A model generated the notes under the pieces. It searched no databases, was not told the origin of the DNA, and saw nothing but the letters and a program-made list of their open reading frames with translations. This document shows, in pieces, positions 6,039-40,977 of a stretch of 64,000 nt of DNA (position 1 is the first letter of the stretch; each line of letters begins with the position of its first letter). The position numbers were made by a program, and so were the translations under genes. Source of the DNA: Parcubacteria group bacterium (GTDB taxonomy: Bacteria > Patescibacteriota > Minisyncoccia > Phycocordibacterales > Zambryskibacteraceae); assembly GCA_028286565.1 (NCBI GenBank), contig JAQBRH010000004.1, positions 217,567-281,566 on the forward strand. Reading direction: 5' to 3'.

Positions 6039-7718
6039 TTACACGCTTGAAAGGTCGAGGACTCGGGCGAGTTCGGGGAGGGAGGTTTCGCCCTTGAGGA
6101 CCTTCAAAATGCCATCCTCTGCGAGGTTTAAGAGGTGTTGAGGCTTGGCTGCGGATTCGATATCCCGCTCGGAAGGGTTGTCTATGACCGCCTTTTCGAT
6201 GTTTGCATCAACAAGGACCGCTTCATACACCCCGATGCGTCCTTTGAATCCGAGATTGTGGCATGCCTCGCAGCCTACCGGCTCAAACGACTTTTCTCTT
6301 TGAATGCCTTCGAGATACGTCGGATCGGTGATGCCCGCGAGCGCCCGGTCGACGATCTCTTTCTGCTTGCCTTCGAGCAGGACCTCCTTTTTGCACGTGT
6401 CACAAAGTTTTCGCACCAAGCGCTGGGCGATAGCGACGTTGAGGGCGCTTGAGATGATCTTCGGATTCACTCCGAGGTCGATGAGTCGGGGGAAGGAACC
6501 CGCGGCGGTGTTCGTGTGGAGGGTCGAGAGCACGAGGTGTCCGGTCAGAGCGGCGTTCACCGCCACTTCGGCCGTTTCGTTGTCTCGAATTTCTCCGACC
6601 ATGATCACATCAGGATCTTGTCGGAGAGCGGAGCGGAGTCCTTCGGCGAAGGTGTAGTCTCCCTCGGAGTCGGTCTGGGTCTGGACAATGCCGTCGAGGT
6701 GGTACTCGATCGGGTTTTCGATGGTGATCACCTTGATGTCCGGCGTGTAAATTTTACGAAGGAAGGCGTAGAGGGTCGTTGTCTTTCCTGAACCCGTCGG
6801 ACCGGTGGTGAGGATCATGCCGTTCGGCTTAACCACTTCTTTCATCAGGACCTCAAGGAGGCGCGGGTGGATCCCCAGCTCTTCAAGAGGGACGGAGATC
6901 GCTTCCGGCGTGAGAACTCGAAGGACCACGGACTCATCGTTCGGTCCGGGGAGGAGGGAGGTTCGGACCTCGATCTCTTCGTCGCCGAGCTTGATCGAGA
7001 ATCGTCCGTCTTGAGCTTTACCCTTGGTGTTCAATTTCAAATTGGAGACAAGCTTGATGCGCGAGAGGAGGAGTTCGAAGGTTTCCTTGTCGAAGTGGAG
7101 GATATCGGTCAAGACGCCGTCCAGACGAAAACGCAGTCGGACATTGTCTTCCTCGGGTTCGAGATGGATATCCGAAGCCTTGAGGGCGACGCCTCCGGCG
7201 AGGATGATCTCGAGGATCTTTGAGATGCGATACGCCTTTTTCATGGAGAGCACTTCGGTGATGAGCTTTTCGATATCCGCGAGAGTGGTCACTTTTTTCA
7301 TGACATCGAGGATTTCTTGGTTCGAGATGTCGAGGGCGCCCGCATTCGTCTCGAACGAATAAGAGAGGTCCTTGTATCGGTCCCAGACCTTTTGGAGCGA
7401 AGCGTGGGAGACCATGTAGAGGGTGGGGACATATCCTCGGCCCTCGAGTTCGGCCATGGCGGCGGCGGTCTTGTCGCTCGACGGAGAGAGGGCGGCGACG
7501 TCCAACTTCTTGTCCGTGATATTGAAGACCGCGATCTCGTTCGATCGCGCATCTTCTTCTTTGATCACGCGGAGAGCGTCGATGTTTATCGGATGAGCGG
7601 AGAGGTCGAGGTAGGGGACGCCGTGCCTTGAGGACATCATCGAGGCGAGGCTTTCCTCTTCCTGGCGCTTGAGCATTTCTGTTCGCTCGTCGGATTTTGT
7701 TTCGTCGAATTCAACCAT
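6039..7718 (-). CDS. pilB: Type IV pilus assembly / type II secretion ATPase (PilB/GspE family)
   Basis: N-terminal GSPII_E_N-like region, Walker A GPTGSGKTTT, Asp box and His box, and a CxxC...CxxC tetracysteine motif (CDTCKK...CEAC). I set the start at MVEFDETK (7718) rather than the ORF-track 7820, whose first 34 aa look non-coding. Confidence 0.85.
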   Translation of the reverse strand: MVEFDETKSDERTEMLKRQEEESLASMMSSRHGVPYLDLSAHPINIDALRVIKEEDARSNEIAVFNITDKKLDVAALSPSSDKTAAAMAELEGRGYVPTLYMVSHASLQKVWDRYKDLSYSFETNAGALDISNQEILDVMKKVTTLADIEKLITEVLSMKKAYRISKILEIILAGGVALKASDIHLEPEEDNVRLRFRLDGVLTDILHFDKETFELLLSRIKLVSNLKLNTKGKAQDGRFSIKLGDEEIEVRTSLLPGPNDESVVLRVLTPEAISVPLEELGIHPRLLEVLMKEVVKPNGMILTTGPTGSGKTTTLYAFLRKIYTPDIKVITIENPIEYHLDGIVQTQTDSEGDYTFAEGLRSALRQDPDVIMVGEIRDNETAEVAVNAALTGHLVLSTLHTNTAAGSFPRLIDLGVNPKIISSALNVAIAQRLVRKLCDTCKKEVLLEGKQKEIVDRALAGITDPTYLEGIQREKSFEPVGCEACHNLGFKGRIGVYEAVLVDANIEKAVIDNPSERDIESAAKPQHLLNLAEDGILKVLKGETSLPELARVLDLSSV

Positions 7719-27776: not shown

Positions 27777-28031
27777 ATGGGTTGGTATGTATATATTGCC
27801 AAAGCAAGGACCGGACACTATTACGTCGGAATAACTACAGATCCAGATTCTAGAATAATTAAGCATAATTCTGGGCAGGGTTCTCAGATGGCAAAACAGC
27901 AAGGCCCATTCGAATTGATGTATCGATCAAAAGATTTGGGTAGTAAATCTGTGGCGCGCAAGAGGGAAGTTCAAATAAAAAAGTGGACTAAGGAAAAGAA
28001 AGATAGATTAATAAATGGTGAATGGGCCTAA
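27777..28031 (+). CDS. GIY-YIG nuclease family protein (YhbQ/UPF0213-like)
   Basis: WYVYIAKARTGHYYVGITTDPDSRIIKHNSG is a GIY-YIG core. 84 aa. TATAAT lies 8 nt upstream of the ATG. Confidence 0.7.
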   Translation: MGWYVYIAKARTGHYYVGITTDPDSRIIKHNSGQGSQMAKQQGPFELMYRSKDLGSKSVARKREVQIKKWTKEKKDRLINGEWA

Positions 28032-28061: not shown

Positions 28062-28134
28062 GGTGGCTATGGTGTAACGGTTAACACTCGAGCTTGTGGA
28101 GCTTGCAATCAGGGTTCGATTCCCTGTAGCCACC
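28062..28134 (+). tRNA. tRNA-His (anticodon GTG, with extra 5' G-1)
   Basis: G-1 + acceptor GTGGCTA/TAGCCAC, anticodon stem CGAGC/GCUUG with loop UUGUGGA, T-arm CAGGGTTCGATTCCCTG. Confidence 0.85.
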
Positions 28135-29721
28135 CCTAATGTTTCTTATTCTAATAGTGTCCCTAAAGGATTTATTCTTTTGGGCAAACATCCTTTCATG
28201 AGGGACGGGTTTGTGCTTGTTGCTGAAGCATATGGTCCCTGAGGCCACCAAAGCCTCAATTACAGGGCTTGGAACTGCCGTGACGAGTTTCCGGTTAGCC
28301 ACCTCAAAACGTTCCCAGAATAGGCTTATGTAGATCCTCTTAAGCTCTGGTGGAGCCTCCTGGTAGGACTGACCTATATTCTTGGCAAGGTGAACTATCT
28401 GCTGGATTGTGTCCACTTTGATGTTCCTGCTTTTCTCAAGTTTTATCAGCTCCTCGTCGCAAGTGTAGATTGCTTCTCGCTGCTTAAGTTTGATCCGAGT
28501 GAAGTCGCTATCATCTAGAATGCCGGAGACAAGTTTTTCTTCCGCCACAGCAAGCTTCTGTTCCGCACTAGACTTAACAGCAAGAATCTTTCTTTTCTCT
28601 CGGATAACATCTCGCTTTTTTAGATCATATATAAACTGCACACGGGTAAGTAGCTTTTCAATAAATTCTGGCGAGAATTCAATGCCCGTGAATAGCTCCT
28701 CAACAGCTATCTCAATATCAGCTGCTCTGACGCTGCGATCCTCATCAGAGATGATTCCAGGCTTTTGTTTACTTGTAAGATATGGACGGTAATAGGTCTT
28801 GTCTTTCTTCGGATGAGTTTCTCCTATAAAGCGGAGTCCGCTTACTGAGGAGAATATATATCCCCGCAAGAGGAAGTCGTATTTTCTTCTTCTGCAGGCG
28901 TGGTGATTATGGTCATCGCAGACCTCTTGGCAACGATCAAAGATGTCTTTGGTCGTGAGTGGGGGATGTTTGCCGATTTGCTCCATCTCCCTCCAACGCA
29001 TAATGCCGTAATAGAATGGATTGCGGATAAGTCGTAGTAGATTCGCAACGCTGAGCATCCCGCCAGTTCTCGACACAAGTCCTTTCTTCTTGAGTTCCTC
29101 ACCAAGCTCGAGCATGGAGTAAGAACCGGTTGAATATCTTTGAAAGAGTTCGGTTATAAGAGAACCCTTCATTTCATCCAGAATAATTATTCTCTTGTCT
29201 GGGTTGTCTGGTGCTCCGGCATTGAGATATCCGACAGGAACTTTGGTAACCCACCAGCCATCTCTGAACCTCTGCTCCATACTTTTAATAGTTTTCCTTG
29301 AGGTAATCTGTGACTGGTACTGGTTAATCAACGCTATAACGCCATCTTGCACTTCGCCCTCAATTGATTCATCAAGGCCAGGTTGATTTACCGAAATAAG
29401 CTTTACCCCTTTCCGTTTCAGAAGTGCTTTGATTGAAAGATGATCAAGCATATTTCTCGCAAGTCTATCGGTGTCGAGAACGTATACTGCACCAACCCTT
29501 TCATCTTCTTGAACACGTACAAGCAGTTCTTGTAGTGCGGGTCTGTTGGTATTCCTCGCTGTTTTTCCTAGGTCTTTGTAGACTCCATCCTCAGCCAACT
29601 CATATTCCGTACTGGCTAAGATTGCCTTCTTTGAGAGATCAAGCTGCGTCTGGATAGAGTATCGACCCTCACCGGCCTGTTCCTCAGTAGAAACTCTGCA
29701 GTAGATAAGGGCCTTTTCCAT
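28081..29721 (-). CDS. Large serine recombinase (site-specific integrase)
   Basis: N-terminal resolvase domain ALIYCRVSTEEQ (catalytic Ser), a recombinase domain and a Cys-rich zinc ribbon (CDDHNHHACRRRKYD). 546 aa. The last ~18 codons are antisense to tRNA-His, so the true stop is uncertain. Confidence 0.85.
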   Translation of the reverse strand: MEKALIYCRVSTEEQAGEGRYSIQTQLDLSKKAILASTEYELAEDGVYKDLGKTARNTNRPALQELLVRVQEDERVGAVYVLDTDRLARNMLDHLSIKALLKRKGVKLISVNQPGLDESIEGEVQDGVIALINQYQSQITSRKTIKSMEQRFRDGWWVTKVPVGYLNAGAPDNPDKRIIILDEMKGSLITELFQRYSTGSYSMLELGEELKKKGLVSRTGGMLSVANLLRLIRNPFYYGIMRWREMEQIGKHPPLTTKDIFDRCQEVCDDHNHHACRRRKYDFLLRGYIFSSVSGLRFIGETHPKKDKTYYRPYLTSKQKPGIISDEDRSVRAADIEIAVEELFTGIEFSPEFIEKLLTRVQFIYDLKKRDVIREKRKILAVKSSAEQKLAVAEEKLVSGILDDSDFTRIKLKQREAIYTCDEELIKLEKSRNIKVDTIQQIVHLAKNIGQSYQEAPPELKRIYISLFWERFEVANRKLVTAVPSPVIEALVASGTICFSNKHKPVPHERMFAQKNKSFRDTIRIRNIRGGYRESNPDCKLHKLEC

Positions 29722-29722
29722 A

Positions 29723-29989
29723 TTAGGTTCTTAGTTTTCTCAGTGAATCGATACGCACCTGGTCTGCTTCTAGGAAGGGGACTACTCGTCGATTTTTAAT
29801 CGCTGTGAGTTGATCAATCAGAACATTAATCTCGTTTGCCGATGAGGTCTTATTCTCTATAGCTTTATCCGCTCTTTCTCGAACAAGTTTGGCGTTCTTC
29901 TTTGCTCTTGGAAGTGTAAGTAGAAGCATCAGGAATCCGATTGACACAAACAGGCCCACCACGAGGAATATGAAGATGATTATTAGCAT
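29723..29989 (-). CDS. Small membrane-anchored coiled-coil protein, hypothetical (coupled to integrase start)
   Basis: TM helix MLIIIFIFLVVGLFVSIGFLMLLL, then a charged helical tail. Its stop abuts the integrase ATG. Confidence 0.4.
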   Translation of the reverse strand: MLIIIFIFLVVGLFVSIGFLMLLLTLPRAKKNAKLVRERADKAIENKTSSANEINVLIDQLTAIKNRRVVPFLEADQVRIDSLRKLRT

Positions 29990-30252
29990 GAAGGGAGTAA
30001 CAAGCGGTTAATCCCTTGGTGAGATACAAAAAGCCCACCACGGGTAGAGCCCGAAGGCTCTCGTACCAGTTTCCCGATACGGCAGGTCATGCGACCCCAT
30101 GATGGGTTCTTTGAGCACGACCTGACTTTGAACCATGCCTTTGGATTGCTCCAAAGGGTTAGGTTCCCAACTGTTCCCAGCTGTAAGTTAATTATGCCTA
30201 ATTTCATGGTTTTTGCTATAAGTGATCATTCCGCCCATATATGTCTTTAAAT

Positions 30253-30301
30253 TGCCGATGACTGCCGATAAGAGTCCTAAAACTAGCAATGACTAGCAAT
30301 G
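30253..30301. promoter_or_regulatory. Cluster of short tandem direct repeats (TGCCGATGAC-TGCCGATAAG; ACTAGCAATG-ACTAGCAATG), a candidate operator between the RHH gene and the integrase operon
   Basis: Seen directly at 30253-30272 and 30282-30301; both sets share the ATGACT core. Confidence 0.45.
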
Positions 30302-30312
30302 AGGGAGTCTGG

Positions 30313-30513
30313 CTACATGATTTCTGGTAATGATTCGTCCTGGTACTGCTCTATAATTTTTCGGTGCTTTTCTTGGTTAAATAGCTCTTCTAGTGCCTCG
30401 CTCACTATCTCGCTCATGGTCTTATTAAGATAAGTGGTGGCGATCTTACATAGGCGATGAGCTTTTTTGCTTACCCTTATTTGCCTTACGTAGCTAACTT
30501 GTCGATTTGTCAT
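30313..30513 (-). CDS. Ribbon-helix-helix (CopG/Arc-like) DNA-binding protein, putative regulator
   Basis: RQIRVSKKAHRLCKIATTYLNKTMSEIVSEALEELF is a beta-strand-helix-helix pattern. 66 aa. Confidence 0.5.
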   Translation of the reverse strand: MTNRQVSYVRQIRVSKKAHRLCKIATTYLNKTMSEIVSEALEELFNQEKHRKIIEQYQDESLPEIM

Positions 30514-30737
30514 TTTCTTATGCTTTTGGCTTCTATCTCCCTCATAGCTTTTAAGAGAGGCTATTAATTATTTGGCGGACAGAATGCTACTGTTTCCAAC
30601 CAGTCAAGGTTCTCCTAGGTCCTTGAATTTTTGTCTGGCGAAACGATCACATGTGTTCTTCCTGATGTGCAGGTGAGGTCCCCCGTTGAGAAGCCATTAC
30701 TCAGAGCGGGGACTTGCATCCGCACACCAACAAGTTT

Positions 30738-30911
30738 TCAGCCCAAGTTTTTCAAGAGATGTGCTGACAGCTCTTTCTGCTCACTATGGTTAATCGAAGT
30801 CTTTTCTATCTGAAGAAGAAATAGTTCTGCCAACTGATCAATGAAAAGGTTCTCAGATTTCTCTGTTTTTTCTTTTCTATTGGTCTTTTTAATGGCTTGA
30901 TACTTTTTCAT
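30738..30911 (-). CDS. Small hypothetical protein (uncertain)
   Basis: 58-67 aa helical ORF between the RHH and Zn-ribbon genes. No recognisable domain. Confidence 0.25.
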   Translation of the reverse strand: MKKYQAIKKTNRKEKTEKSENLFIDQLAELFLLQIEKTSINHSEQKELSAHLLKNLG

Positions 30912-31028
30912 ACAACAAAAAAGACCCAGCCAGGAAACCAAACAGGGGTGTTTAGTTACTTGGCTGGGTCCTCTAAGTTCTTGCGAACTTCTATATAACC
31001 CGCACTTCAGCTATGAATGTTCTACGAC

Positions 31029-31280
31029 TTAAATGCTATTCTCTATCTCGCTCTCTGTCAAATCTGCTGTAAACACCCCCTCATTGGGACCAAAGCGGAT
31101 CACCTTCATGCCACCCTCAGTATCTTTTCTAGGTGGATAAACAATAGATATCGTGTGGCATTTCGTGCATCTTATTTTTCTGATATTTTTCTCTCCAAGG
31201 TGTGAGTCGCCCATATAGTGTGCACAGTTCGTGCAGATAATTCTCTTGACCCCGTCTTTATTAAAAGTTTTCTGTTTCAT
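31029..31280 (-). CDS. Zinc-ribbon protein (CxxC-x17-CxxC), hypothetical; immediately downstream of the KAP NTPase
   Basis: CTNCAHYMGDSHLGEKNIRKIRCTKCH. 83 aa. Confidence 0.5.
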   Translation of the reverse strand: MKQKTFNKDGVKRIICTNCAHYMGDSHLGEKNIRKIRCTKCHTISIVYPPRKDTEGGMKVIRFGPNEGVFTADLTESEIENSI

Positions 31281-31305
31281 AAATTGATTATAAATTAATC
31301 AGTAT

Positions 31306-33576
31306 CTAGTACATAGGGTCATTTCTTTTTGGAAAATCTTTCTTGAAGAGTGATATTGCATCTTTTTGATTGTCGGGCAGTTTATCTAATTTCACTTTAT
31401 CTATTGTGGTTTTGATGTAATCGAGATCAAAAAATTCTTTGAGTGATGAAAATGATATTCTCGGTATTTGTTCAGTAATCATGCCAGATGATCTGAGAGA
31501 TATTGTTTTAAACTTTGATACAAACTCAGCCAAAGCAAGTCTGCTCTTTTTATAAGTATTAACAAAAGTCCTCATATCTTTTTCACCACCCCATTCCTTC
31601 CATCTATATAAAATGTAGACAAGGTTTTCTTGTTTTTTTAGAGATCCGTCTTTATATGCTTTATTTATTTTCTTAAGACCTTCCTTCGATAGCTCTGTTA
31701 TTTCTAGATTATCAAATAATTTTTCTCGGCCGGAAGATTCTTTTTCAGGTCTGGGGAAGTACGAGGAAATAAGGTGGATAGCCCCATATAAGGATTTAGT
31801 TTTTCGGATAGCTTCTCTGCTCGGTTCAAATATGGAAATTTCCCTATCTTTCAATGATTTTAGATAGAAATGGATTACCCTCATAAGATCTGTCTCGGCT
31901 CCGAAATCAAACATCTGATGGGACTTTATACCTGACACCTCATCTGCAATATCCAATAGAACAGTTAAGGTCTGAGCGATCTTATTTCCCTCGGTAGGGA
32001 ATTCTTTTACGTGATCTAGGATCGTAGTGAGAAACTTCCTGATGTCTTTCTTCTTGTCTTGAGTTTTGAGATAGCCGTGCAGCAGAGCAGAAAATTGTTT
32101 GTAGTCTCTAACTTTTTCTAGTGCTGAAGTAATCTCAGACGACCGCATCTCACCCTCAGGGACATTCAAGAAGAAGTAGGTATCAAAATGATCAGCTGAA
32201 CAAATCCTTCTATTCTGCCGCCACTCTTGTTCAATGGTATCGCCCATTGAGTAGTTCTCGAGCACCGATTTAAGGGGAGGGAAGAGTTCGACAAGAAAAT
32301 CTTTAATAAATGGATCAACTTTAACTAACTCAATTCCAATATTTTTCCTTATTTCATCAAGCCTTTTTGATTGATAGTCTCTATGATGGTTTAGCGTAGT
32401 GAACTCCTCTTTATTGTTAGATATGTAATTGTATAAATCAGGATAGAAGTGTTCGAGGGTTCTTATTCCGAGAAAATCAACAGGATCCACCTCGCTTGAT
32501 ATTAAGCTTGCCGCCATCGTCATTTGGCTCAGTGGCCTCTTGATTATTCTGAGATTCCCTCTTTTAAGAAAAGCTTTACCTAAGCCAGAATGATATAGTG
32601 TTGCCCATCTATTTTTATCCCATTTGCTTTCGGAGAAAAACTTTATCAGTTCGTCTAATTGAGCGAATAAGAATTCAGACAATTTTTTGTCATCAGCTTT
32701 TGGAAGCGAGATGGGAATTTGCACAATTTTCTCAATATATTCCATTCCCTCAATACCGTCCTTACTTATCATTTTTCCTACGGTGCCTACGTCCATAACC
32801 ATAAGATATATAAGATTTGGAAGATCTAAATTGATTTTTACTAGTTGGAATAGATTTCTTACCTCCTCCGGCGTGAGACGATCTATATCATCTATAATGA
32901 ACAGAATTTTGCGATCTCTTTTAGATAAAGTCTCTCTAATATCATTCTTTAGTTGGTTAAGCGTTTTCTCTGTTAAAGAAGATTTTTTCTTATAGAAATC
33001 CTCAGCCATAGATACAAGCCCTTCGATAAAGGTAAGAGATTCTAAAATTAAAATAAGAATTATTGTTCCTACGTAGGCGATAGGGCTAAATGCAAAAATT
33101 TTATCTAGTATCACAACTCCCGTAAGCCCAAGAATTGGGAGCCATAGCCTGATAATAGGAAGAAAAGCTTTGTCTTTGATTTTAGTTATTGTTCCTAAAT
33201 ACAATTTTACAAGACCAAGCTGCCTAGCTATTTCCTTGTCTATTTCATTATTTTTCTGTCCCAGCTCTTTACCAACCTCTAATAGAAAATTCTGGACCAA
33301 GTCTCCTTGGTTGGAGAATATCCAAGGGTTAAACTCTATAATTGTTGGGATCTTGTCCTGATCGATATCCTCCTCAAATTTATCAGGGTGATTATAAAAA
33401 TCTTTAATGAAATTGACGACAGAGGTCTTTCCATCACCCCATTTTGCATATAAACCAATTACAAGACTGTCGGAGTCCTTCCAAGATAGGATGTCTTTTG
33501 CGATACGCTTAGCAAAGCCTTTTCGGCCAAGGAGGTCTTCCTCAACTGTCTCTACCGCTTTATCAGAAAAAGCCAT
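31306..33576 (-). CDS. KAP-family P-loop NTPase (membrane-inserted NTPase domain)
   Basis: Walker A GLYAKWGDGKTSV, two TM helices inserted after the P-loop (LPIIRLWLPILGLTGVVIL / IAYVGTIILILILESL), Walker B ILFIIDDIDRL, and a long helical C-terminus. 756 aa. Confidence 0.8.
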   Translation of the reverse strand: MAFSDKAVETVEEDLLGRKGFAKRIAKDILSWKDSDSLVIGLYAKWGDGKTSVVNFIKDFYNHPDKFEEDIDQDKIPTIIEFNPWIFSNQGDLVQNFLLEVGKELGQKNNEIDKEIARQLGLVKLYLGTITKIKDKAFLPIIRLWLPILGLTGVVILDKIFAFSPIAYVGTIILILILESLTFIEGLVSMAEDFYKKKSSLTEKTLNQLKNDIRETLSKRDRKILFIIDDIDRLTPEEVRNLFQLVKINLDLPNLIYLMVMDVGTVGKMISKDGIEGMEYIEKIVQIPISLPKADDKKLSEFLFAQLDELIKFFSESKWDKNRWATLYHSGLGKAFLKRGNLRIIKRPLSQMTMAASLISSEVDPVDFLGIRTLEHFYPDLYNYISNNKEEFTTLNHHRDYQSKRLDEIRKNIGIELVKVDPFIKDFLVELFPPLKSVLENYSMGDTIEQEWRQNRRICSADHFDTYFFLNVPEGEMRSSEITSALEKVRDYKQFSALLHGYLKTQDKKKDIRKFLTTILDHVKEFPTEGNKIAQTLTVLLDIADEVSGIKSHQMFDFGAETDLMRVIHFYLKSLKDREISIFEPSREAIRKTKSLYGAIHLISSYFPRPEKESSGREKLFDNLEITELSKEGLKKINKAYKDGSLKKQENLVYILYRWKEWGGEKDMRTFVNTYKKSRLALAEFVSKFKTISLRSSGMITEQIPRISFSSLKEFFDLDYIKTTIDKVKLDKLPDNQKDAISLFKKDFPKRNDPMY

Positions 33577-33654
33577 AAGGCCATACTACATGAGGAGTTT
33601 GGAATTACCACACGCAAGCTTCTCTTTTGTTCTATCGAGGTATATTCTGGCTAT

Positions 33655-33966
33655 ATGAAAAAGGTTGTTGTATATGTGCCCCTAACCCACACCGATCAAG
33701 TTCGGGAGGCTATCGGGCAGGCTGGAGGCGGGCAGCTCGGGAAGTACGCCTTCTGTAGCTTCTCTACACGGGGTATAGGGCGTTTTAAGCCTCTGGAAGG
33801 GGCTAACCCTCATATTGGCTTTGTGGGTCAAATGGAGGCTGTAGAGGAAGAAAGAATCGAGGTTTCCGTGGAAGATAGTCTGGTGGAGAGTGTGATATCC
33901 GCCATTAAAAAGGTACATCCGTACGAGGAAGTGGCTTTGGACATATATAATTTAGAGCAAGTATGA
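33655..33966 (+). CDS. Small PII/CutA-like (Nif3 C-terminal-like) protein
   Basis: 103 aa. The C-terminal HPYEEVALDIYNLE resembles the Nif3/CutA HPYE(E/V)P motif, with a beta-alpha-beta pattern. The call is tentative. Confidence 0.4.
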   Translation: MKKVVVYVPLTHTDQVREAIGQAGGGQLGKYAFCSFSTRGIGRFKPLEGANPHIGFVGQMEAVEEERIEVSVEDSLVESVISAIKKVHPYEEVALDIYNLEQV

Positions 33967-34595
33967 AAATCACCAAACTTGGTCATTGCTGCCTACTGCT
34001 AGAAACTAAGGGCCAGAGAATTCTTACAGACCCAGGTAGCTATACCGTAGACGCACATTCTCAACTCACAAACGTCGATTACATTTTGTATACCCACGAG
34101 CATCAGGATCATTACCACCTTGAGTCATTGAAAGTGCTTATTGGAAAAAATCCACAAGCAATTATCTACACTAATGATTCCGTAAGTGAGCTTCTTACCA
34201 AAGAGGGAATAGCTCACACGCTTGTCCGGAACGGAGAAGCGGTATCTCTCGGGGAAATTTCTGTGGTTGGTATTGGTGAAGAACACGCCCAAATGCACAG
34301 CTCGATACCTTTATCGTCCAACATTGGTTTCCTAATTGATGAGAGATTATGGTATCCAGGCGATGCCTTCACTAATCCAGAAAGAGAGATAGAGATCCTC
34401 GCCCTTCCCGTGTCTGGCCCGTGGATGAAGATAGGTGAGGCAATAGATTACGCATTTCTTCTTAAGCCTAAAAAAGCTTTTCCGGTTCATGATGGTACAC
34501 GTTTTGGATCTGCACATAATCTCCCCGCGAAGCTTCTTCCGGCGAATGGCATCGAGTTTGTAGTAATGGCTGAGGGTGACAGCAGGGAATTCTAA
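33963..34595 (+). CDS. Metallo-beta-lactamase-fold hydrolase
   Basis: HEHQDH (HxHxDH) zinc motif, a downstream His, and the WYPGD...PVHDG motif. Confidence 0.75.
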   Translation: MKITKLGHCCLLLETKGQRILTDPGSYTVDAHSQLTNVDYILYTHEHQDHYHLESLKVLIGKNPQAIIYTNDSVSELLTKEGIAHTLVRNGEAVSLGEISVVGIGEEHAQMHSSIPLSSNIGFLIDERLWYPGDAFTNPEREIEILALPVSGPWMKIGEAIDYAFLLKPKKAFPVHDGTRFGSAHNLPAKLLPANGIEFVVMAEGDSREF

Positions 34596-34608
34596 TATAA
34601 TCAAAACC

Positions 34609-35295
34609 ATGACTGAACTTGAAAGGAATTTCCAAAAATTTAAGAAGATTACAAGAGAAGAGTTCTTTATTGCTGAAGAAATTAAAAAGCATGTTGAGAT
34701 TAAAGATACTGATACGATTTTGGATGTCGGCTGTGCTGATGGTAATCTCTCAAAGTCATTAACTAAAGACTCAACAAACATTACATTTCTAGATGTTGAT
34801 GAGTTTAATTTCTCTCCTCAGGAGAAATTTATCCGCTCTTCGTTTGAGGAGGTAGAGTTAGGCGAGAAGTTTGATCTGATTTTAAGTTCGCATGTCTGGG
34901 GACACTTCTACAGGAACAACACCTTTGGTTTCTGCTTTAAGAAAGCCCATGATCTGCTCAAAGAAGGCGGAAAGCTGATCGTGGTGCATAACTCTAATAA
35001 AGACTTTACCGGGAAGCTCATCGAATTCTCGAAGACATTATTCGATCAAATAGAGTTCGATGTCTTTCTCGATGAGTTCTTAGAAGGTGCAGATTATGAG
35101 GAATCCTACTTCGATGTGAATTTGAAAGCGGAAACATTCAGAGAACTGGCAGAACTTGTCCAGGTATTATTGGTTGTTCCAGATGCTATCTATTACTCGA
35201 AGATCGAAGAGATGACCCGCTTCTTAGAAGCTAATCTGGAAAAACCGGAGTTCGCTATTAATCAAAGACTTTTAGTAATAAAGAAGAAAGGTTAG
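34609..35295 (+). CDS. Class I SAM-dependent methyltransferase
   Basis: Motif I ILDVGCADGNLS. I chose the ATG at 34609, 7 nt after a TATAAT box; the ORF-track start at 34576 is in frame and overlaps the upstream gene. Confidence 0.7.
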   Translation: MTELERNFQKFKKITREEFFIAEEIKKHVEIKDTDTILDVGCADGNLSKSLTKDSTNITFLDVDEFNFSPQEKFIRSSFEEVELGEKFDLILSSHVWGHFYRNNTFGFCFKKAHDLLKEGGKLIVVHNSNKDFTGKLIEFSKTLFDQIEFDVFLDEFLEGADYEESYFDVNLKAETFRELAELVQVLLVVPDAIYYSKIEEMTRFLEANLEKPEFAINQRLLVIKKKG

Positions 35296-35312
35296 GCGAA
35301 TGAGGCTATAAA

Positions 35313-36206
35313 ATGACTTACGACAATAATTGGTTCAAACAACGGGCTCTTAATTCTTTCCGCAGGATAGGTCCTAACGTCTGGGATTATTCTGATTCTT
35401 TACTTCTTTATATTTCTTCAGGAGTGGAGAAATACGAATCTCTACAAGAGGAGGATACTCCTTATTTTAAGTTAGTGATTAAACCAGAACGCGAATATTT
35501 AGAATCAATAGCAAAGGATGTTATTAACGCCTTACCTTCGAATTTTGAGTATGTTGATCTTGGTCCAGGCACTGAACACAAGGAACAATTCTTTTTCGAT
35601 GAGCTTAAGAAGCAGGGGAAGAAGTTTACTTATATTCCTGTAGATATTAGCGAGCATTACCTCAAGCTGGCTGAACAACACGCTATCGATCAAGGCATTC
35701 CTGTCAGCACAATACAGTCTTCTTTTGAAGAAGCGGCTGAAGTATTAGGAGAAGGAAGCGTGCCACGCTTTGTAAATATTGGGCTCACTTTCTCTAACTA
35801 TGAACCTCAGGTAATTCTAAAACTACTTAAAACTATTGCAGGCAAGGGAGGGTTCGTTTTTATCAATAGCCAAATGAGAGATAGGTTAGATATAAATAGT
35901 TTACAACGAGTATATGCAGAAGATGCTTTGACTTTGGCGGACGATAAACTCAAGCTAGTCGGTTTAGATCCTAATGCTGATGTGACCCCAAGAAAAGCAG
36001 ATGATGCTATTAAGGTATGGTGTTCAGTTATTAAGCCCTCTCTCGATCTTGAGACGATTGGAGTTGTGGAGGGCGATAAATTGCTTGTTTTTCAATCCCT
36101 CCGATATACACCAGAGAAGCTTAAGGAAGAACTAGAAAAAGCTTCGGAGAACTATCAAGTGTTTGATACAGGTGCTTCTTTCATTGCTGGGTTAATCAAA
36201 ACCTAA
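35313..36206 (+). CDS. EgtD-like (Methyltransf_33/DUF323) SAM-dependent methyltransferase
   Basis: YVDLGPGTEHKEQFFFDEL, YIPVDISEHYL and NIGLTFSNYEP resemble the EgtD-family motifs (ELGSGSSxKTR, VPVDVS, GSTIGN). Confidence 0.5.
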   Translation: MTYDNNWFKQRALNSFRRIGPNVWDYSDSLLLYISSGVEKYESLQEEDTPYFKLVIKPEREYLESIAKDVINALPSNFEYVDLGPGTEHKEQFFFDELKKQGKKFTYIPVDISEHYLKLAEQHAIDQGIPVSTIQSSFEEAAEVLGEGSVPRFVNIGLTFSNYEPQVILKLLKTIAGKGGFVFINSQMRDRLDINSLQRVYAEDALTLADDKLKLVGLDPNADVTPRKADDAIKVWCSVIKPSLDLETIGVVEGDKLLVFQSLRYTPEKLKEELEKASENYQVFDTGASFIAGLIKT

Positions 36207-36447
36207 ACCAAAGCAGGGAAGGAGGAAATAAAATCCAGCTTCTCTTTTACTCCTTCCAGGTATATTCTGTCGGAGAAGATATCCAGAATAATTTTCCTAT
36301 CGGGACCCAAATTTGCGAAGCTAATTTGGCGTAGGCTACAGGGAATCGAAAGACGGAGGCGCGAAGCCGATCCAGCAGGATCGCAGCCGAGTCGGGGTCG
36401 CGGAAATTTTCTGCCGAAAATTATCCGTGCCCGATGAACCCCTTATT

Positions 36448-36531
36448 CTGTAGCCACCCAAATTTTTAGGCCTATAAATAAAGGTAGTTTTTGGTACCCA
36501 GATGGGGATTAGAACCTGATATACTCACAAG
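36448..36531 (+). repeat. Cassette boundary/promoter module R1 (att-like CTGTAGCCACCC + ACCCAAATTTTT + GATATACT -10 box 6 nt before the ATG)
   Basis: It is related to R2 at 38172-38276 (~80% identity over 75 bp). Confidence 0.55.
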
Positions 36532-37248
36532 ATGAAAGAGGATATTTATTTTGAAAGTGGAAGTCTTAAACTTGTTGGCACTTTATATAAAGCGCCTAAG
36601 GAGAAAGCCTCAGCGCTTTTAATTGCAGGAGGGGGGAACACCCATCGACACAAAGGATATTATCCTCCGTGGCAAAACTTTCTTTTGGAGAACGGAGTCA
36701 CAACATTCAACTTTGATTTTCGAGGGGTAGGAGATGCAGAAGGAAATTTAAATGAAAGCAATCTAAATACAAGAGCAGAAGATGCGAAAGCTGCCCTTGA
36801 AATTCTGAAGCAACATTCTGATACAGAAAATATATTTGTAGTCGGTGTAAGCATGGGCGGGCCTGTGGCGATAAGGATAGTAGATCATTCAATTAAAGGA
36901 ATGCTTCTGGTTGTTGCCGCTGCATATTCAATGGAAGCGCGAGATAAGAATTTTGGCCCCGAGTTTTCAGAAGCGATACGAAAACCAGACAGCTGGAAAG
37001 ATTCACCTGATTTTAAAGACTTAGAGAGATACATGGGCGACACATTTTTGCTATATACGGATAGTGATGAAGTAGTTCCTCAGGGTATAAGTTTGAACTA
37101 CGAAGAGATCATAAAAGCAAAAGGGGGACAGGTGCTTGCCCTTAAGGATGCCAACCATCGAACCTGGAAGGAAGGGCAACAAGAATATGCCTTAAGGGAG
37201 ATGTCGAATTTTATCCTTGAGAAGAGCCTATCAAAGGTATACTCATGA
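36532..37248 (+). CDS. Alpha/beta-hydrolase fold protein
   Basis: Nucleophile elbow GVSMGG, then a downstream Asp and His (DSDEVV...ANH). 238 aa. Confidence 0.7.
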   Translation: MKEDIYFESGSLKLVGTLYKAPKEKASALLIAGGGNTHRHKGYYPPWQNFLLENGVTTFNFDFRGVGDAEGNLNESNLNTRAEDAKAALEILKQHSDTENIFVVGVSMGGPVAIRIVDHSIKGMLLVVAAAYSMEARDKNFGPEFSEAIRKPDSWKDSPDFKDLERYMGDTFLLYTDSDEVVPQGISLNYEEIIKAKGGQVLALKDANHRTWKEGQQEYALREMSNFILEKSLSKVYS

Positions 37249-37625
37249 GTATGATAAGTTTCATTTTAAATCTTCCTTGGACTATTCTCGGTGTATTGGC
37301 AGGGATTGTGTCGATACCTAAAAAGTTTCAAGGCAATAAAAATCCTTTCGCTTTAGTATTTACTGTAAAAAGTTTCTGGTGGTATACATGGCAACCCAAG
37401 ATGAGGGGAGCGCGAGCTATGACGATAGGGCATGTGGTTCTTTTGAGCCCAAATATTTTGGAGCACGATCTAGAACATGAACTTATACACGTAGAGCAAG
37501 CTGTGCGTATTCCACTTATACATCCAGTTCTCTATGCAATCGAAAGTTTTAGGAAGGGCTATCGAGAGAATAAATACGAAAAGGAAGCTTATGGTAGGGC
37601 AGGAAACATTTATATAGAAAAATGA
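37245..37625 (+). CDS. Small membrane-anchored HExxH zincin-like protein (paralog A)
   Basis: N-terminal TM, WWYTW, then LEHDLEHELIHVEQ (HExxH plus a downstream Glu). Its start overlaps the upstream stop (ATGA). Its 3' ~360 bp are ~98% identical to 38918-39275. Confidence 0.6.
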   Translation: MSMISFILNLPWTILGVLAGIVSIPKKFQGNKNPFALVFTVKSFWWYTWQPKMRGARAMTIGHVVLLSPNILEHDLEHELIHVEQAVRIPLIHPVLYAIESFRKGYRENKYEKEAYGRAGNIYIEK

Positions 37626-38173
37626 CTGAAAAAGAAATTCTCAAGCTTATCCAAGAGGACTCATGGATGATGGAGACTTTACGTAAAGCAGAAAGTTTGA
37701 ATTTAAAAGATTGGGCTATTGGAGCGGGATTCATTCGAAATAAGATTTGGGATCACCTTCATGGATATACGGAAAGAGAATGGGGGAGCAGCGATGTGGA
37801 TCTGGTCTATTTTGATGAAGATGATAAGGGTGAGGAATATGATGAGAAGTTGTCTGAGAAGTTAAAGAGTGAGACAGGGACCAATTGGGAAGTGGTAAAT
37901 GAGCACCATGCTCACGTATGGAATAAGATTCCGCCTTACACTTCCGTTGAGGATGCAATTTCAAAGTTCCCTGAGACTGTAACCGCTATAGGTGTTCGCA
38001 TAAGAAATGAAGAAATAGAACTGATTACACCCTATGGAATTGAAGATAACGTGAGCATGATCATCCGACCAACGCCCATATTTGAAGACAAGATGGATAA
38101 GATCCGTGAGAGGGTGGCAAAGAAGGGTTGGATGGAAAAATGGCCTAAACTAAAGTATGCGGAGACCGAATAA
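37622..38173 (+). CDS. Nucleotidyltransferase-fold protein (minimal NTase, PF06042-like)
   Basis: GAGFIRNKIWD...SSDVDLVYFD, i.e. the G[GS] and DxD motifs of the Pol-beta superfamily. It is translationally coupled to the HExxH gene (ATGA overlap). Confidence 0.55.
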   Translation: MTEKEILKLIQEDSWMMETLRKAESLNLKDWAIGAGFIRNKIWDHLHGYTEREWGSSDVDLVYFDEDDKGEEYDEKLSEKLKSETGTNWEVVNEHHAHVWNKIPPYTSVEDAISKFPETVTAIGVRIRNEEIELITPYGIEDNVSMIIRPTPIFEDKMDKIRERVAKKGWMEKWPKLKYAETE

Positions 38174-38276
38174 AGTTCTAAACCCATCCACCCACCGACC
38201 CAAATTTTTTCAGGGCTATAAATAAGGTTAGTTTTTGCTACCCAGATGGGAATTTAGAAATGATATACTGAATTCT
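38172..38276 (+). repeat. Cassette boundary/promoter module R2 (AGTTCTAAACCCATCCACCCACCGACCCAAATTTTTT...GATATACT)
   Basis: Shares the AGTTCTAAACCCATCC boundary with R3, and the ACCCAAATTTTT..TATAAATAA..GTTAGTTTTTG..TACCCAGATGGG block with R1. Confidence 0.55.
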
Positions 38277-38810
38277 ATGAAAAGATTTTCAATCGTGATT
38301 CTTGTTCTCGTAGGTTTGAGCGCGGGTTACTGGTATAAAACCGGACATGTCGCACTGCAACCGGCGCTGTGGAAATCTGTTTGGATAGGTACAACGTACC
38401 CCCCGCTCTCTAATGGATTGTCTAGCAACGGCGCGCTCACAGTTGGAGACGCAAGATATGCCACATATGTTATAGACGAGATGAAAACTCCAGACGGCAC
38501 CGAACTATGGTTAGCAAGCATGGTAAAGGGAGTGAACGGAAAGCCTATTTTTACCGTTACTGACGCCCTACCTTTTTTCTCTGGCGCTGATGAAAACGGA
38601 AATATGTCGATTTGGGGAGTATGCGGTTATTCGCCTGACAAAGTACTTAATATCGATAATTCAATTGTCGCTCAGATAAGTGCCAGAGACTATGTATCCA
38701 GTGGGCCCATTAATGCAAAGAAAGCATGGAAGGCGAATAATGCCACTGGAAAATTTGAGTCGATTCCGCCAGTAGGAATCTCCTGTATTAATGAAGGAGG
38801 GCAGGAGTGA
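38277..38810 (+). CDS. Membrane-anchored/secreted hypothetical protein
   Basis: Start at MKRFSIVILVLVGLSAGYWYK, an anchor resembling that of gene 40405. No domain recognised. Confidence 0.45.
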   Translation: MKRFSIVILVLVGLSAGYWYKTGHVALQPALWKSVWIGTTYPPLSNGLSSNGALTVGDARYATYVIDEMKTPDGTELWLASMVKGVNGKPIFTVTDALPFFSGADENGNMSIWGVCGYSPDKVLNIDNSIVAQISARDYVSSGPINAKKAWKANNATGKFESIPPVGISCINEGGQE

Positions 38811-38830
38811 TAAAACACTCCCTTCATTCG

Positions 38831-38900
38831 AAACTAGTTCTAAACCCATCCGCCCGACGACCCGGTTTTCAATCTGTCGACCCAGGGGTATACTCTGAGT
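38831..38900 (+). repeat. Cassette boundary/promoter module R3 (AGTTCTAAACCCATCCGCCCGACGACCCGGTTTTCAATCTGTCGACCCAGGGGTATACT)
   Basis: Nearly identical to R4 at 40349-40404; the TATACT box lies 6 nt before the ATG. Confidence 0.55.
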
Positions 38901-39275
38901 ATGATAAGTTTCGTTTTAAATCTTCCTTGGACCATTCTTGGTGTATTGGCTGCTATTGTTTCAATGCCTAATAAGTTTCGTACTAACCCGAGCCCTTTCG
39001 CTTTGGTATTTACTGTAAAAAGTTTCTGGTGGTATACATGGTTACCAAAGAGGAAAGGAGCACGAGCCATGGCGATAGGGCGTGTGGTTCTTTTGGGCCC
39101 AAATATTTTGGAGCACGATCTAGAGCATGAACTTATACACGTAGAGCAAGCTGCGCGTATTCCACTTATACATCCAGTTCTCTATGCAATCGAAAGTTTT
39201 AGGAAGGGCTATCGAGAGAATAAATACGAAAAGGAAGCTTATGGTAGGGCAGGAAACATTTATATAGAAAAATGA
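38901..39275 (+). CDS. Small membrane-anchored HExxH zincin-like protein (paralog B)
   Basis: MISFVLNLPWTILGVLAAIVSMP...LEHDLEHELIHVEQ. The C-terminal half is nearly nucleotide-identical to paralog A. Confidence 0.6.
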   Translation: MISFVLNLPWTILGVLAAIVSMPNKFRTNPSPFALVFTVKSFWWYTWLPKRKGARAMAIGRVVLLGPNILEHDLEHELIHVEQAARIPLIHPVLYAIESFRKGYRENKYEKEAYGRAGNIYIEK

Positions 39276-39829
39276 ACGAAGATCTTGTTTACATCGACCA
39301 ATACGGCCTCCTTGGTAGTAATTTCTATTGGCACCATAGAGCGGATAAGGGACTGTCTGATCAAGATCTGATCGAAGCCGAACTGACTAATGATCGAGTG
39401 TTGGTGCACAGAGATATTATCGATAAATTAATTTCGATAGATAAAGAATTCCAGAAGAGGGGGTATAGGCTCTATATCAAAGAAGGATACCGTTCAAAAA
39501 AGCTCTACGAGATGATCTACAAGCGACGGGTAGAAATGTTCGGCAAAGAGGAAACAGATAGACTCTTGAACATGAAGGATATGCCGCATTCTTTTGGCAA
39601 GTCTATTGATGTATCCCTGAGAGATATTACCGGTACAGAAGAAGTGCCAATGCGTAACAAGGCGGATGGGACCGGTGCTTTATTTATTAATTTCTATAAA
39701 GGCAAGGAAGACGAACAAAGTAAGAAGTATCAAGAGCTGCAAGATTTTGTGCTTTCAGTAATGCGTGCTCATGGATTTAAGCTTGGAACTAAGAACGAAT
39801 ATTTCCACTTTGATCACAAAGAGTTCTAA
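39272..39829 (+). CDS. Peptidase M15 (VanY/D-Ala-D-Ala carboxypeptidase-like, LAS zinc-binding) family protein
   Basis: PHSFGKSIDVS (H-x2-G-x-S-I-D) and EYFHFDH (second His), as in VanX/VanY. It is coupled to the HExxH gene (ATGA overlap). Confidence 0.55.
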   Translation: MNEDLVYIDQYGLLGSNFYWHHRADKGLSDQDLIEAELTNDRVLVHRDIIDKLISIDKEFQKRGYRLYIKEGYRSKKLYEMIYKRRVEMFGKEETDRLLNMKDMPHSFGKSIDVSLRDITGTEEVPMRNKADGTGALFINFYKGKEDEQSKKYQELQDFVLSVMRAHGFKLGTKNEYFHFDHKEF

Positions 39830-39865
39830 ATTCATCTCCGCGGGGGTATACTTCTTCTCAATCAT

Positions 39866-40333
39866 ATGGATGTACACGTAAGGCGATCTAGGAACGGGCA
39901 GGGCATTTTTGCAAATAGAGATTTTTCTGCACAAGAAGTTATATATGAAGTGAAAGGAAAATTGATCACATGTGGCGAAGATGAGGATATCGATCAGAGG
40001 GTCCGGGATAATACATTTAGATTCGACAAAGAGAAATATCTAAGTCCGGAAGGCGAATTGGGCGATTTCCAGAATCATTCGTGCGAACCGAATGCCGGAG
40101 TTTTCAAAAGTAAGAAAAAACTTTTTATTAAGGCGATTAAAAATATTAAAGAAGGCAAAGAGATCCTTATAGACTATTCCACGATCCTTGCTACAGACGA
40201 CACCTGGACGATGAAATGTAATTGCGGAAGCGCAAACTGCAGGGGGATCATAAAGAAATTCAAGAATATACCAAAAGTAACCAAAGAAAAGTATCTCGCC
40301 TTAGGTATTGTCCCAGAGTACATCTTAAATTAA
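39866..40333 (+). CDS. SET-domain protein (putative protein lysine methyltransferase)
   Basis: NHSCEPN, EILIDYS (ELxxDY) and the post-SET Cys cluster CNCGSANCRG. It has its own GGGGGTATACT promoter box at 39842-39852. Confidence 0.75.
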   Translation: MDVHVRRSRNGQGIFANRDFSAQEVIYEVKGKLITCGEDEDIDQRVRDNTFRFDKEKYLSPEGELGDFQNHSCEPNAGVFKSKKKLFIKAIKNIKEGKEILIDYSTILATDDTWTMKCNCGSANCRGIIKKFKNIPKVTKEKYLALGIVPEYILN

Positions 40334-40348
40334 GGCGGCCCTCATTTC

Positions 40349-40404
40349 ATCATCCGTCCGACGACCCGGTTTTCAATCTGTCGACCCGGGGGTATACTTT
40401 AGGC
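40349..40404 (+). repeat. Cassette boundary/promoter module R4
   Basis: CATCCGTCCGACGACCCGGTTTTCAATCTGTCGACCCGGGGGTATACT; 52 of 55 nt match R3. Confidence 0.55.
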
Positions 40405-40977
40405 ATGAAAAAACAACAAGGATTTGCCACCCCCCTTACGCTGGGGTTACTAGTAGTTTTGCTTGTGGGAGGGGGGTATTATTGGATGAATCACAGGTCT
40501 TCTTCGAATTCTCCGGCCAAGACGCTCAGCATAACCGCCTCGGACTGGAGCACCTACAAATGGATGGGAATCGAACCGACGCATATTTCCTTTGCAGAGG
40601 CGGCGACTCCCGCTCTTGCCATCACGGGGTGGAAAGGTTTTGTGGATTTTAATTCAGACGGTCCGGCGGGGAACCTGAGAGTTGAAACTTTTCAAAAAAC
40701 AAATTCTGAAAAGGACTTTCCTTCATATGTAGCGGCCAACATGGGGATCTTTGAGTCAGTGAAGTTTTTCCAAGTCGCGGGCCACGATGCAGCAAGGATA
40801 CGACACGCATCCAAAGATCAATACGACGCGGACGTCGCCTGGTACTTCATAGATGCGGGCGATAAGTCTATCATTGCCATCTCTACCAGCGGAGACAGCA
40901 TGTATCTCTACGACGATGATCAAAACGGCATGTCATCAAGGGATAGGTACATCGCCGGGTACCAGCCTGCGAAGTAA
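40405..40977 (+). CDS. Membrane-anchored/secreted hypothetical protein
   Basis: N-terminal anchor LLVVLLVGGGYYW, then a soluble domain with no recognised fold. 190 aa. Confidence 0.45.
   Translation: MKKQQGFATPLTLGLLVVLLVGGGYYWMNHRSSSNSPAKTLSITASDWSTYKWMGIEPTHISFAEAATPALAITGWKGFVDFNSDGPAGNLRVETFQKTNSEKDFPSYVAANMGIFESVKFFQVAGHDAARIRHASKDQYDADVAWYFIDAGDKSIIAISTSGDSMYLYDDDQNGMSSRDRYIAGYQPAK

Follow-up and report, generated by a model that had tools for sequence, protein, structure and literature searches.

The stretch of DNA analysed here, referred to as the window, covers 64 kb of a Parcubacteria metagenome-assembled genome (locus tags JWN89_638/641/643). Between 36460 and ~40367, on the forward strand, it carries an array of four gene cassettes. 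The array is anchored to the 3' terminus of a tRNA-His gene, is foreign in composition, and is divided by short boundary and promoter modules that recur around other genes in seven other metagenomic contigs and meet at a common junction. The host DNA has a G+C (GC) content of ~53%, and the region from 28 to 40.4 kb forms a low-GC block with three parts: a recombinase element, a spacer termed the H-box, and the array itself. ACCC-type junctions at 36459/36460 and 40367/40368 mark the ends of this low-GC block at the array. The seven array genes have a GC content at third codon positions (GC3) of 0.34-0.45, as compared to 0.64-0.73 in host genes. Because of this difference, the array is read as compositionally foreign and its genes as horizontally acquired.

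Modules and genes of the array

Three kinds of module punctuate the array. Module a, AAGTTCTAAACCCATCC[A/G]CC...CGACCC, is ~29 nucleotides (nt) long and C-rich (45% C, 10% G); it lies upstream of a promoter and close to, or directly at, the stop codon of the gene before it. The b-type promoter (in repeats R1 and R2) has an extended -10 element, TGATATACT, with TTAGAAC ahead of it. The c-type promoter (in R3, R4 and R5) reads TTCTAA/TTTTCA-N17-(GGGG)TATACT, with the canonical 17-nt spacing between its -35 and -10 elements. The b-type modules end with an inverted form of the motif that is common to the start of module a and the c-type -35 region. Pairwise, R1 and R2 are 83% identical over 63 nt (36463-36525 and 38207-38269), the boundaries of R2 and R3 are 83% identical over 35 nt (38167-38201 and 38829-38863), and R3 and R4 are 89% identical over 61 nt (38847-38907 and 40351-40411). 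The motif AGTTCTAAA occurs three times in the window, each time in the array, against 0.36 expected occurrences, and 0 of 100 shuffled sequences reach three. All three exact window copies of GGGGTATACT are likewise in the array, as are three exact copies of CATCCRYCCRNCGACCC, against 0.21 expected.

The array opens with R1 (36460..36531, +), a b-type promoter module of the form AAATTTTT..TATAAATAA..TACCCAGATGGG..TAGAACCTGATATACT that follows a copy of the tRNA-His 3' end without a gap. From its -10 box (36520-36525), 6 nt separate it from the ATG of cassette 1 (36532..38173, +). This cassette contains genes for an alpha/beta hydrolase (36532-37248, +), for the first copy of a putative minimal zincin with an HExxH motif and a transmembrane segment (HExxH-TM; 37245/37251-37625, +, the annotated start at 37251 being known via a homolog search), and for an NTP_transf_6 nucleotidyltransferase (37622-38173, +). 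The first HExxH copy retains a TATACT-N7-ATG arrangement of its own within the 3' end of the hydrolase gene (37238-37253). This former promoter (GGTATACTCATGAGTATG; compare GGGGTATACTCTGAGTATG before the second copy) supplies the final five codons and the stop of the hydrolase, whose open reading frame (ORF) therefore reads into the retained -10 box. Read as 126 or as 124 aa, the HExxH protein has no exact protein record.

R2 (38172..38276, +) follows, composed of a module a at 38172-38201 (AAGTTCTAAACCCATCCACCCACCGACCC, touching the stop codon; nhmmer E 1e-8) and a b-type promoter at 38202-38269 whose -10 box is at 38264-38269. Cassette 2 (38277..38810, +) encodes a protein of 177 amino acids (aa) with an N-terminal membrane anchor and no family match in Pfam, NCBIfam or PADLOC. 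R3 (38834..38900, +) consists of a module a at 38834-38863 (nhmmer E 2e-9) and a c-type promoter at 38864-38894, TTTTCA-N17-TATACT, with GGGG ahead of the TATACT. In cassette 3 (38901..39829, +), the second HExxH-TM copy (38901-39275) is joined through an ATGA start/stop overlap to a weakly assigned M15/VanX-like peptidase (39272-39829). The two HExxH genes are 94% identical over 287 nt and 88% identical over 84 nt.

Cassette 3 runs directly into a c-type promoter with no module a between. This promoter, R5 (39820..39865, +), places its -35-like TTCTAA (39824-39829) over the M15 stop codon, followed by the 17-nt spacer and the -10 TATACT (39847-39852), with the ATG of cassette 4 13 nt on. Cassette 4 (39866..40333, +) encodes a SET-domain protein (Pfam SET 7.5e-17), and homologs with 60-67% identity are found in other Parcubacteria, both within an array (L080) and outside arrays (L074-79). 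Cassettes 1 and 2 thus close with a module a at or near the stop codon, and cassette 4 with its 3' half only. That half-module (40351-40367, CATCCGTCCGACGACCC) and a c-type promoter (40368-40398) make up R4 (40351..40404, +), the distal junction between the low-GC array and host-like DNA. Beyond it lies the gene of a 190-aa membrane-anchored protein (40405..40977, +), host-like in composition (GC3 0.56), which probably represents either the resident gene or an old cassette that has since ameliorated. The 177-aa and 190-aa proteins have no sequence similarity to each other, and the idea that these two membrane-anchored proteins are paralogs was rejected for lack of it.

These features are consistent with much of what a first-pass annotation, made from the window alone, had described. 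All of the blocks it reported as shared among R1 to R4 are present. Its placement of TATACT 6-7 nt before the cassette ATG holds at R1 to R4 (36520, 38264, 38889 and 40393), whereas the box before the SET gene ends 13 nt before the start codon. The box before the SET gene belongs to a full c-type promoter with its -35 over the M15 stop, and is not a copy of module a. No cassette is without a -10 box, the distance to the ATG being 6-13 nt. The proposal that the boundary sits at three stop codons is correct in two cases: at 38174 AGTTCTAAA adjoins the stop codon, and at 39822 it includes the stop (TAA, 39827-39829). At 38836 it lies 25 nt past the stop codon (38808-38810). Among the predicted cassette contents, the SET domain is borne out by Pfam, whereas both M15 matches (25.6 and 22.3 bits) fall under the curated Pfam cut-offs.

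The TATACT boxes themselves had been described as the end of each module. Outside the island, a comparable layout, with N5-6 between TATA[AC]T (or TACAAT) and the ATG or GTG start codon, is seen at no fewer than 10 host ORFs, and across the window a TATAAT-like hexamer stands 5-7 nt before the start codon of many host genes, without a visible Shine-Dalgarno sequence. The presence of TATA[AC]T 6-7 nt before the ATG of many host genes argues that the TATACT boxes are the host's ordinary predicted -10 elements for leaderless mRNAs, shared by array and host alike. Leaderless mRNAs seem, from this layout, to be common in this Parcubacteria genome.

The assortment of genes had also suggested a likeness to polymorphic effector/toxin cassette systems, with a constant small partner for a variable downstream enzyme. 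As considered here, this would be a polymorphic toxin, effector-immunity or anti-phage defence locus with the HExxH protein as the constant partner. SET proteins are effectors in some pathogens, and the one encoded here has a weak NCBIfam match to AnkI/LegAS4 (22 bits). Yet no cassette protein has a PADLOC match, and Pfam and NCBIfam show no toxin, effector, immunity or secretion-system domains among them. The HExxH proteins belong to a membrane-anchored family of ~124 aa that is widespread in Parcubacteria (140 matches) with unrelated neighbours, which vary freely by genome (NUDIX, S24, FUR-ZIP, MazG-like, PNPOx), leaving the constant-partner idea weak and a toxin or defence locus hardly credible. 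The HExxH/NTP_transf_6 pair does recur in another lineage (contig L061), and an old linkage combined with local duplication is therefore favoured over partner-swapping. The second HExxH copy in the window is accordingly best explained by local duplication or gene conversion.

In one lineage (L067 5698-7293; L068 1430-2557, where the Zip gene is cut by the contig end), genes for a FUR-family regulator and a ZIP zinc transporter come after the HExxH-TM gene, an order that hints at a link between the HExxH-TM protein and zinc homeostasis.

Anchor, spread and common junction

The comparison set consists of eight loci from diverged genomes, namely the window and seven other metagenomic contigs, some of which were found via the motif itself. 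L001 is the contig of an HExxH homolog at 76% identity, four contigs were added by one exact-pattern scan of metagenomes, and L061 to L063 and L080 were recovered via homologs of cassette proteins.

The anchor of the whole region is the 3' terminus (..CTGTAGCCACCC) of tRNA-His(GTG), at 28063..28136 on the forward strand (ARAGORN; Rfam 60.9 bits). An exact 12-base copy of its end (28124-28135) is found at 36448-36459 (CTGTAGCCACCC), where it closes the H-box, a resident 151-nt spacer (36309..36459, +) recognised by BLAST of the tRNA region against the window. The H-box has a host-like GC content of 0.54 and also contains, in inverted orientation, a 17-nt copy of the T-arm/acceptor of tRNA-His (36334-36350); the array starts immediately downstream of it. 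In L080 (about 780-911), an equivalent spacer follows tRNA-His, with an inverted fragment and a 14-nt direct copy, CCCAGTAGCCACCC. Across these two loci the spacer measures 130-150 nt, and its predicted fold has z = -3.3 in the window and only -1.0 in L080. Arrays begin right after tRNA-His in four loci (the window, L058, L060 and L080), and in three of them the array start bears a direct copy of the 3' end of the host tRNA-His (12 nt in the window, 14 nt in L080 and 8 nt in L058). In each of these three, the copy abuts a b or c promoter, just as module a does elsewhere. L058 has, in addition, a 65-nt insert with copies of GGGCACCC on both sides.

Module a is present in ~24 clustered copies between unrelated genes in the seven other contigs: five in L001, five and degenerate ones in L057, two each in L058 and L059, one in L060, four in L061 and one in L080. 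Searched with a profile of module a, the other ~60 kb of the window, with its ~60 other genes, yields no full-length copy, and neither do loci where the homologs of the HExxH, recombinase or SET proteins are more distant. The viral contigs gave zero matches to two boundary patterns. The exact 16-mer AGTTCTAAACCCATCC has 53 single matches, in unrelated taxa, in a collection of representative genomes that does not include the source genome, and these are judged to be chance. The 29-mer is identical in L057 (four of five copies), L058 and L060 although their tRNA-His genes differ, and this 29/29-nt identity spans genomes with ~80% identical common proteins and GC contents of 0.35 and 0.50. The copies in L061 are decaying. 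Together, the identical 29-mer and the decaying L061 copies give the impression of active arrays alongside fossil ones.

The genes between the modules differ from contig to contig. In L001, modules a, b and c lie between genes for a MazG-like protein, APH and small membrane proteins. In L057, five copies of module a occur within 3 kb, among a methyltransferase gene, a CmpB-like gene, a SAM-riboswitch gene, a CDPS-like gene and a membrane-protein gene. L057 and L058 share an ArsR-glutaredoxin-rhodanese operon with 78-87% amino-acid identity, and upstream of it L057 has ~8 cassettes and L058 one, all different. Across loci, the b and c modules each stand before ~10 different gene families. The portable boundary and promoter modules with unrelated contents that the first-pass annotation had proposed are thus recovered well beyond the window, and content does vary among related genomes, as the cassettes of L057 and L058 illustrate. 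The alternative raised there, that the modules are confined to this locus as one local duplication, is at odds with their presence in seven other contigs. The tRNA-His anchor, the neighbouring serine-recombinase element and the foreign composition of the array had gone unnoticed there. Two cassettes of L057 deserve mention in their own right: one (6532-6642, +) is made up of a 62-aa ORF with a SAM-I riboswitch (Rfam 45.7 bits) and an intrinsic terminator, and another codes for a cyclodipeptide-synthase-like protein.

What unites the boundaries is a junction of the form ..[C/G]ACCC|. The left halves that end in this sequence are the tRNA-His terminus or its copy, module a, and the right end of the neighbouring recombinase element. 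The right halves that follow it are the b modules, the c modules, the left end of the recombinase element, and the ancestral tRNA flank. In alignment, the tRNA copy, module a, the element right end and its L061 homolog all end in ..CCC and continue into AAATTT... or a b module. Behind orthologous nucleotidyltransferase genes (82% identity), module a forms the left half in the window and a homolog of the element right end does so in L061, and homologous b modules come next in both. The L001 boundary at 1229 reads ACCC|CTTAAGT, which is the junction between recombinase element and tRNA-His in L069 and L072; this boundary comprises 51 nt with perfect 12-nt inverted ends, centred on ACCC.

Inverted ends of this kind raise the possibility that only the intergenic modules are mobile, as boundaries resembling miniature inverted-repeat transposable elements (MITEs) with outward promoters, inserted between resident genes. 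Some a+b boundaries do have terminal inverted repeats (R2 AGTTCTAAACCCAT / ATGGGAATTTAGAAAT; the perfect 12-nt ends at L001 1229), and the modules carry promoters, as do the Correia elements of Neisseria. Against this, the a+c boundaries have direct, not inverted, copies of the motif, there are no target-site duplications and no dispersed copies in the window, and all copies are in the same orientation and clustered in one locus. Such insertions would also leave the foreign composition of the genes between the modules unexplained, and we consider this reading improbable.

A classical integron, or a cluster of attC sites lacking an integron integrase (CALIN), would instead consist of promoterless cassettes bounded by attC sites and caught by the tyrosine recombinase IntI. 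The likeness to the present array is superficial: unrelated small cassettes are co-oriented next to a fixed site, repeats start from the preceding stop codon, and content is variable among relatives. By Pfam, the main ORFs of 27.7-43.5 kb include no tyrosine recombinase, only a serine recombinase. RNAalifold predicts 8 weak pairs at -4.6 kcal/mol and no covariation for 6 a+c boundaries, and 0 pairs for 7 a+b boundaries, so the boundaries show nothing like an attC hairpin. Nor is a known RNA indicated, Rfam having no match in 36150-40450 even at E=1. R''/R' core sites are absent, and what is conserved is the primary sequence. Each cassette comes with a predicted promoter of its own in place of a common Pc, and the array is anchored on a tRNA gene, at the 3' end. 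The earlier comparison to integrons is therefore not sustained, and an integron or CALIN in the strict sense is highly improbable.

Two further proposals concern the site itself. Module a was considered as a decayed tRNA-His 3' end, and its layout of lengths does fit T-loop, T-stem, acceptor and discriminator; the candidate was set aside, as its score is no better than that of shuffled controls and the same sequence is found beside different tRNA-His genes. The c module of L057 and L058 does contain a significant T-arm-like 14-mer. A serine-integrase geometry was also considered, with the 51-nt L001 boundary symmetric about ACCC; the promoter-side distance ranges from 14 to 60 nt across boundaries, and this proposal is kept as a lead only. 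The same applies to the AGTTC motif, whose distance from the junction in module a exceeds that in the tRNA by 5 nt, in the manner of attP and attB half-sites.

The adjacent serine-recombinase element

An integrative element of ~8.2 kb (28137..36308) lies between tRNA-His and the array. It shares the ..ACCC| junction and is not part of the array. Its large serine recombinase (28081-29721, -) has Resolvase and Recombinase domains, with Pfam and PHROG integrase matches. Recombinase homologs with 60-67% identity overlap tRNA-His likewise in L069 and L072, two loci that share L19 / tRNA-Leu synteny. In the three genomes, the 3' end of the recombinase ORF overlaps tRNA-His antisense (window 28081-28136, L069 6545-6576, L072 11592-11602). 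Because the ORF overlaps the 3' part of tRNA-His, the C-terminus of the recombinase is encoded across the attachment junction. L080 represents a syntenic empty site, with tRNA-Leu(GAG), a gene and tRNA-His as in the window and without the element. The right end of the element, GGGACCC|AAATTTG at 36308/36309, was placed by alignment to L080. Judged from these sequence contexts, the recombinase family integrates at exactly the same tRNA-His junction in three genomes.

Each of the three tRNA-His elements also contains a LOOT RNA (Rfam RF03000; 83-85 bits), located 300-560 nt upstream of the recombinase gene on the same strand (window 30046-30165, -; L069 4548-4667, +; L072 9323-9442, +). The LOOT RNA appears to be a conserved component of this tRNA-His-targeting element family. 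The cargo in the window includes a PifA-like KAP NTPase gene (31306-33576, -; PADLOC PifA 8e-76), likely an abortive-infection defence gene, and an operon (33655-36206, +) for a P-II-like protein, a hydrolase with a metallo-beta-lactamase (MBL) fold and two methyltransferases. A promoter-like module, module d (CTTCTCTTTTAC..AGGTATATTCTG), precedes the P-II-like gene at 33617-33649 and recurs at the right end of the element at 36237-36308, where no ORF follows. Its homolog in L061 (1268-1340) stands in the place of module a behind the nucleotidyltransferase gene.

With its recombinase domains, its defence cargo, and an insertion point at the tRNA-His 3' end that is occupied in three genomes and empty in a fourth, 28137-36308 fits the known elements in which a large serine recombinase targets a tRNA gene. 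It is an ordinary element of its kind, and provides the context for the array, not the array itself. The neighbouring serine recombinase was also considered as an obligate partner of the array; this proposal was dropped, as the homolog loci are without module a and most arrays are without a recombinase.

Outside the element, a small GIY-YIG gene (27777-28031, +) between tRNA-Leu(GAG) and tRNA-His has a foreign composition (GC 0.39, GC3 0.35). L080 has a different gene at this position, TsaC-like by our own reading of the sequence, and in L074-L079 a GIY-YIG gene comes after the SET homolog.

Proposed assembly of the array and its relation to known systems

The region 36460-40367 may be a hypervariable, tRNA-His-anchored array of four horizontally acquired, self-promoted cassettes that was built by recombination at the ..ACCC| junction, a reading to which we assign roughly even chances. 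In this mechanism, cassettes would be gained, lost and reshuffled through recombination at ..[C/G]ACCC|. On the chromosome, the attachment site would be the tRNA-His terminus (..CACCC); on the cassettes, it would be module a (..GACCC). New insertions would push older cassettes farther from the tRNA. The catalyst could most plausibly be a large serine recombinase of the family found next door, acting in trans; this is the least supported step. Later duplication or gene conversion would have given rise to the second HExxH gene and to the paired b modules (R1/R2) and c modules (R3/R4), and such local copying would produce the mosaic that the first-pass annotation perceived.

Several observations weigh against assembly by recombination. 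R3 is nearly identical to R4, and R1 to R2, which shows that plain local duplication clearly contributes to this array, and the homology between the HExxH copies stops inside the cassette, at the ATG of the next gene, not at a boundary. Module a lacks dyad symmetry, and it scores no better than shuffled controls against tRNA 3' ends. The inverted GTTCTAA-like motif on the promoter side lies 14 to 60 nt from the junction, unlike the fixed geometry of recombinase half-sites. The first 10-15 nt of module a also occur in the -35 part of c-type promoters, making a regulatory role plausible. No module a lies within 10 kb of the recombinase homologs in L069 and L072, and no recombinase gene is visible beside the arrays in L057, L058, L060, L061 and L080. 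Finally, no excised circle, empty cassette site or strain-level presence/absence variant breaking at ACCC| was observed, the case for mobility being drawn from diverged genomes.

The main alternative is that the modules are purely cis-regulatory. The b and c modules would then represent a lineage-specific promoter family, and module a an operator, an insulator or a factor-dependent (rut-like) terminator. The cluster would be inherited vertically beside tRNA-His and turn over by duplication, deletion and homologous recombination, and the 30-90-nt modules might serve as portable homology after DNA uptake. Much of the promoter anatomy is compatible with this proposal. The -10 boxes are ordinary and host-wide, the c-type spacing is the canonical 17 nt, and a c-type promoter also appears to drive the housekeeping gene folD in L058. 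Module a opens with the c-type -35 motif AGTTCTAAA, and a related motif is inverted just upstream of the b-type -10 boxes, in the manner of paired operators. The C-rich, G-poor composition of module a, together with the lack of intrinsic terminators at the cassette ends in the window, would suit a terminator of the rut type, and local duplications are evident while most arrays have no recombinase alongside.

Other features are harder to reconcile with a regulatory role alone. Not one of the ~60 other genes in the window has a full-length module a. In L060 and L057, module a comes after a canonical intrinsic terminator and so is not needed for termination there. Its 29/29 identity across genomes whose proteins are ~80% identical exceeds what is usual for operators or rut sites, while the L061 copies decay. 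Further, cis-regulation leaves unexplained both the block of foreign composition that ends at ACCC| junctions and the replacement of module a by a recombinase-element end at an orthologous position. On balance, we regard the cis-regulatory explanation as possible, though somewhat unlikely.

Assembly by recombination at the junction can be extended to a more specific proposal, which is put forward tentatively and which we think somewhat unlikely as a whole. Here, Patescibacteria would possess a hitherto undescribed gene-capture platform in which small self-promoted cassettes with a 29-nt site are inserted in trans by a serine recombinase, at the tRNA-His ..CACCC terminus and at the ends of earlier cassettes. 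As the junction falls between the boundary and a leaderless promoter, each captured gene would be expressed. The result would be a functional 'integron' made from other parts.

The array shares its logic with several known systems but fails the defining features of each; integrons and CALINs, discussed above, are one case. The tycheposon-built islands of Prochlorococcus arise by tandem accretion of integrative elements at tRNA genes, where successive integrations push older elements inward and leave degenerate remnants and partial tRNA copies scattered; their integrases are tyrosine or large serine recombinases, and their cargo consists of accessory genes (bioRxiv 10.1101/2020.12.28.424599). 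Like these islands, the present array abuts a tRNA gene, with a 12-14-nt copy of the tRNA-His 3' end at its start in the window and L080. Its units are much smaller (0.5-1.7 kb, 1-3 genes), and have no integrase or replication genes or integrase fragments. Its internal boundaries are module a, which is shared despite different tRNA-His genes and is not significantly tRNA-like.

Staphylococcal chromosome cassettes (SCC/SCCmec) are inserted at the 3' end of rlmH in staphylococci by the Ccr large serine recombinases. They form tandem arrays that include recombinase-less cassettes, with short direct repeats of the site and mobilisation in trans. The SCC units are many kb in size, their repeats copy the rlmH end, and no promoter modules are fused to the site, unlike the arrangement described here. 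For the present array, a serine recombinase is a proposed agent. The pdif modules of Acinetobacter plasmids are small gene modules with a ~28-nt site and no recombinase of their own, presumably moved by a host enzyme. The pdif sites are XerC/XerD sites with dyad symmetry, and their orientation alternates around the modules that they flank, whereas module a is without dyad symmetry and always in one orientation. The literature searched contains no account of a cassette array, boundary or gene-capture platform like this one in Patescibacteria.

Patescibacteria (the Candidate Phyla Radiation, CPR) have tiny genomes and are mostly uncultured, and the routes by which they gain genes are poorly known. 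If the boundary is a recombination site, it would provide a searchable marker for an accessory-gene hotspot of the lineage and a means of cataloguing its mobile genes, here small hydrolases, nucleotidyltransferases, methyltransferases, NUDIX, MazG and APH-type enzymes. It would also provide a candidate minimal pair of site and recombinase. Even if the modules are only regulatory, they would constitute the first promoter/boundary family to be defined in these organisms.

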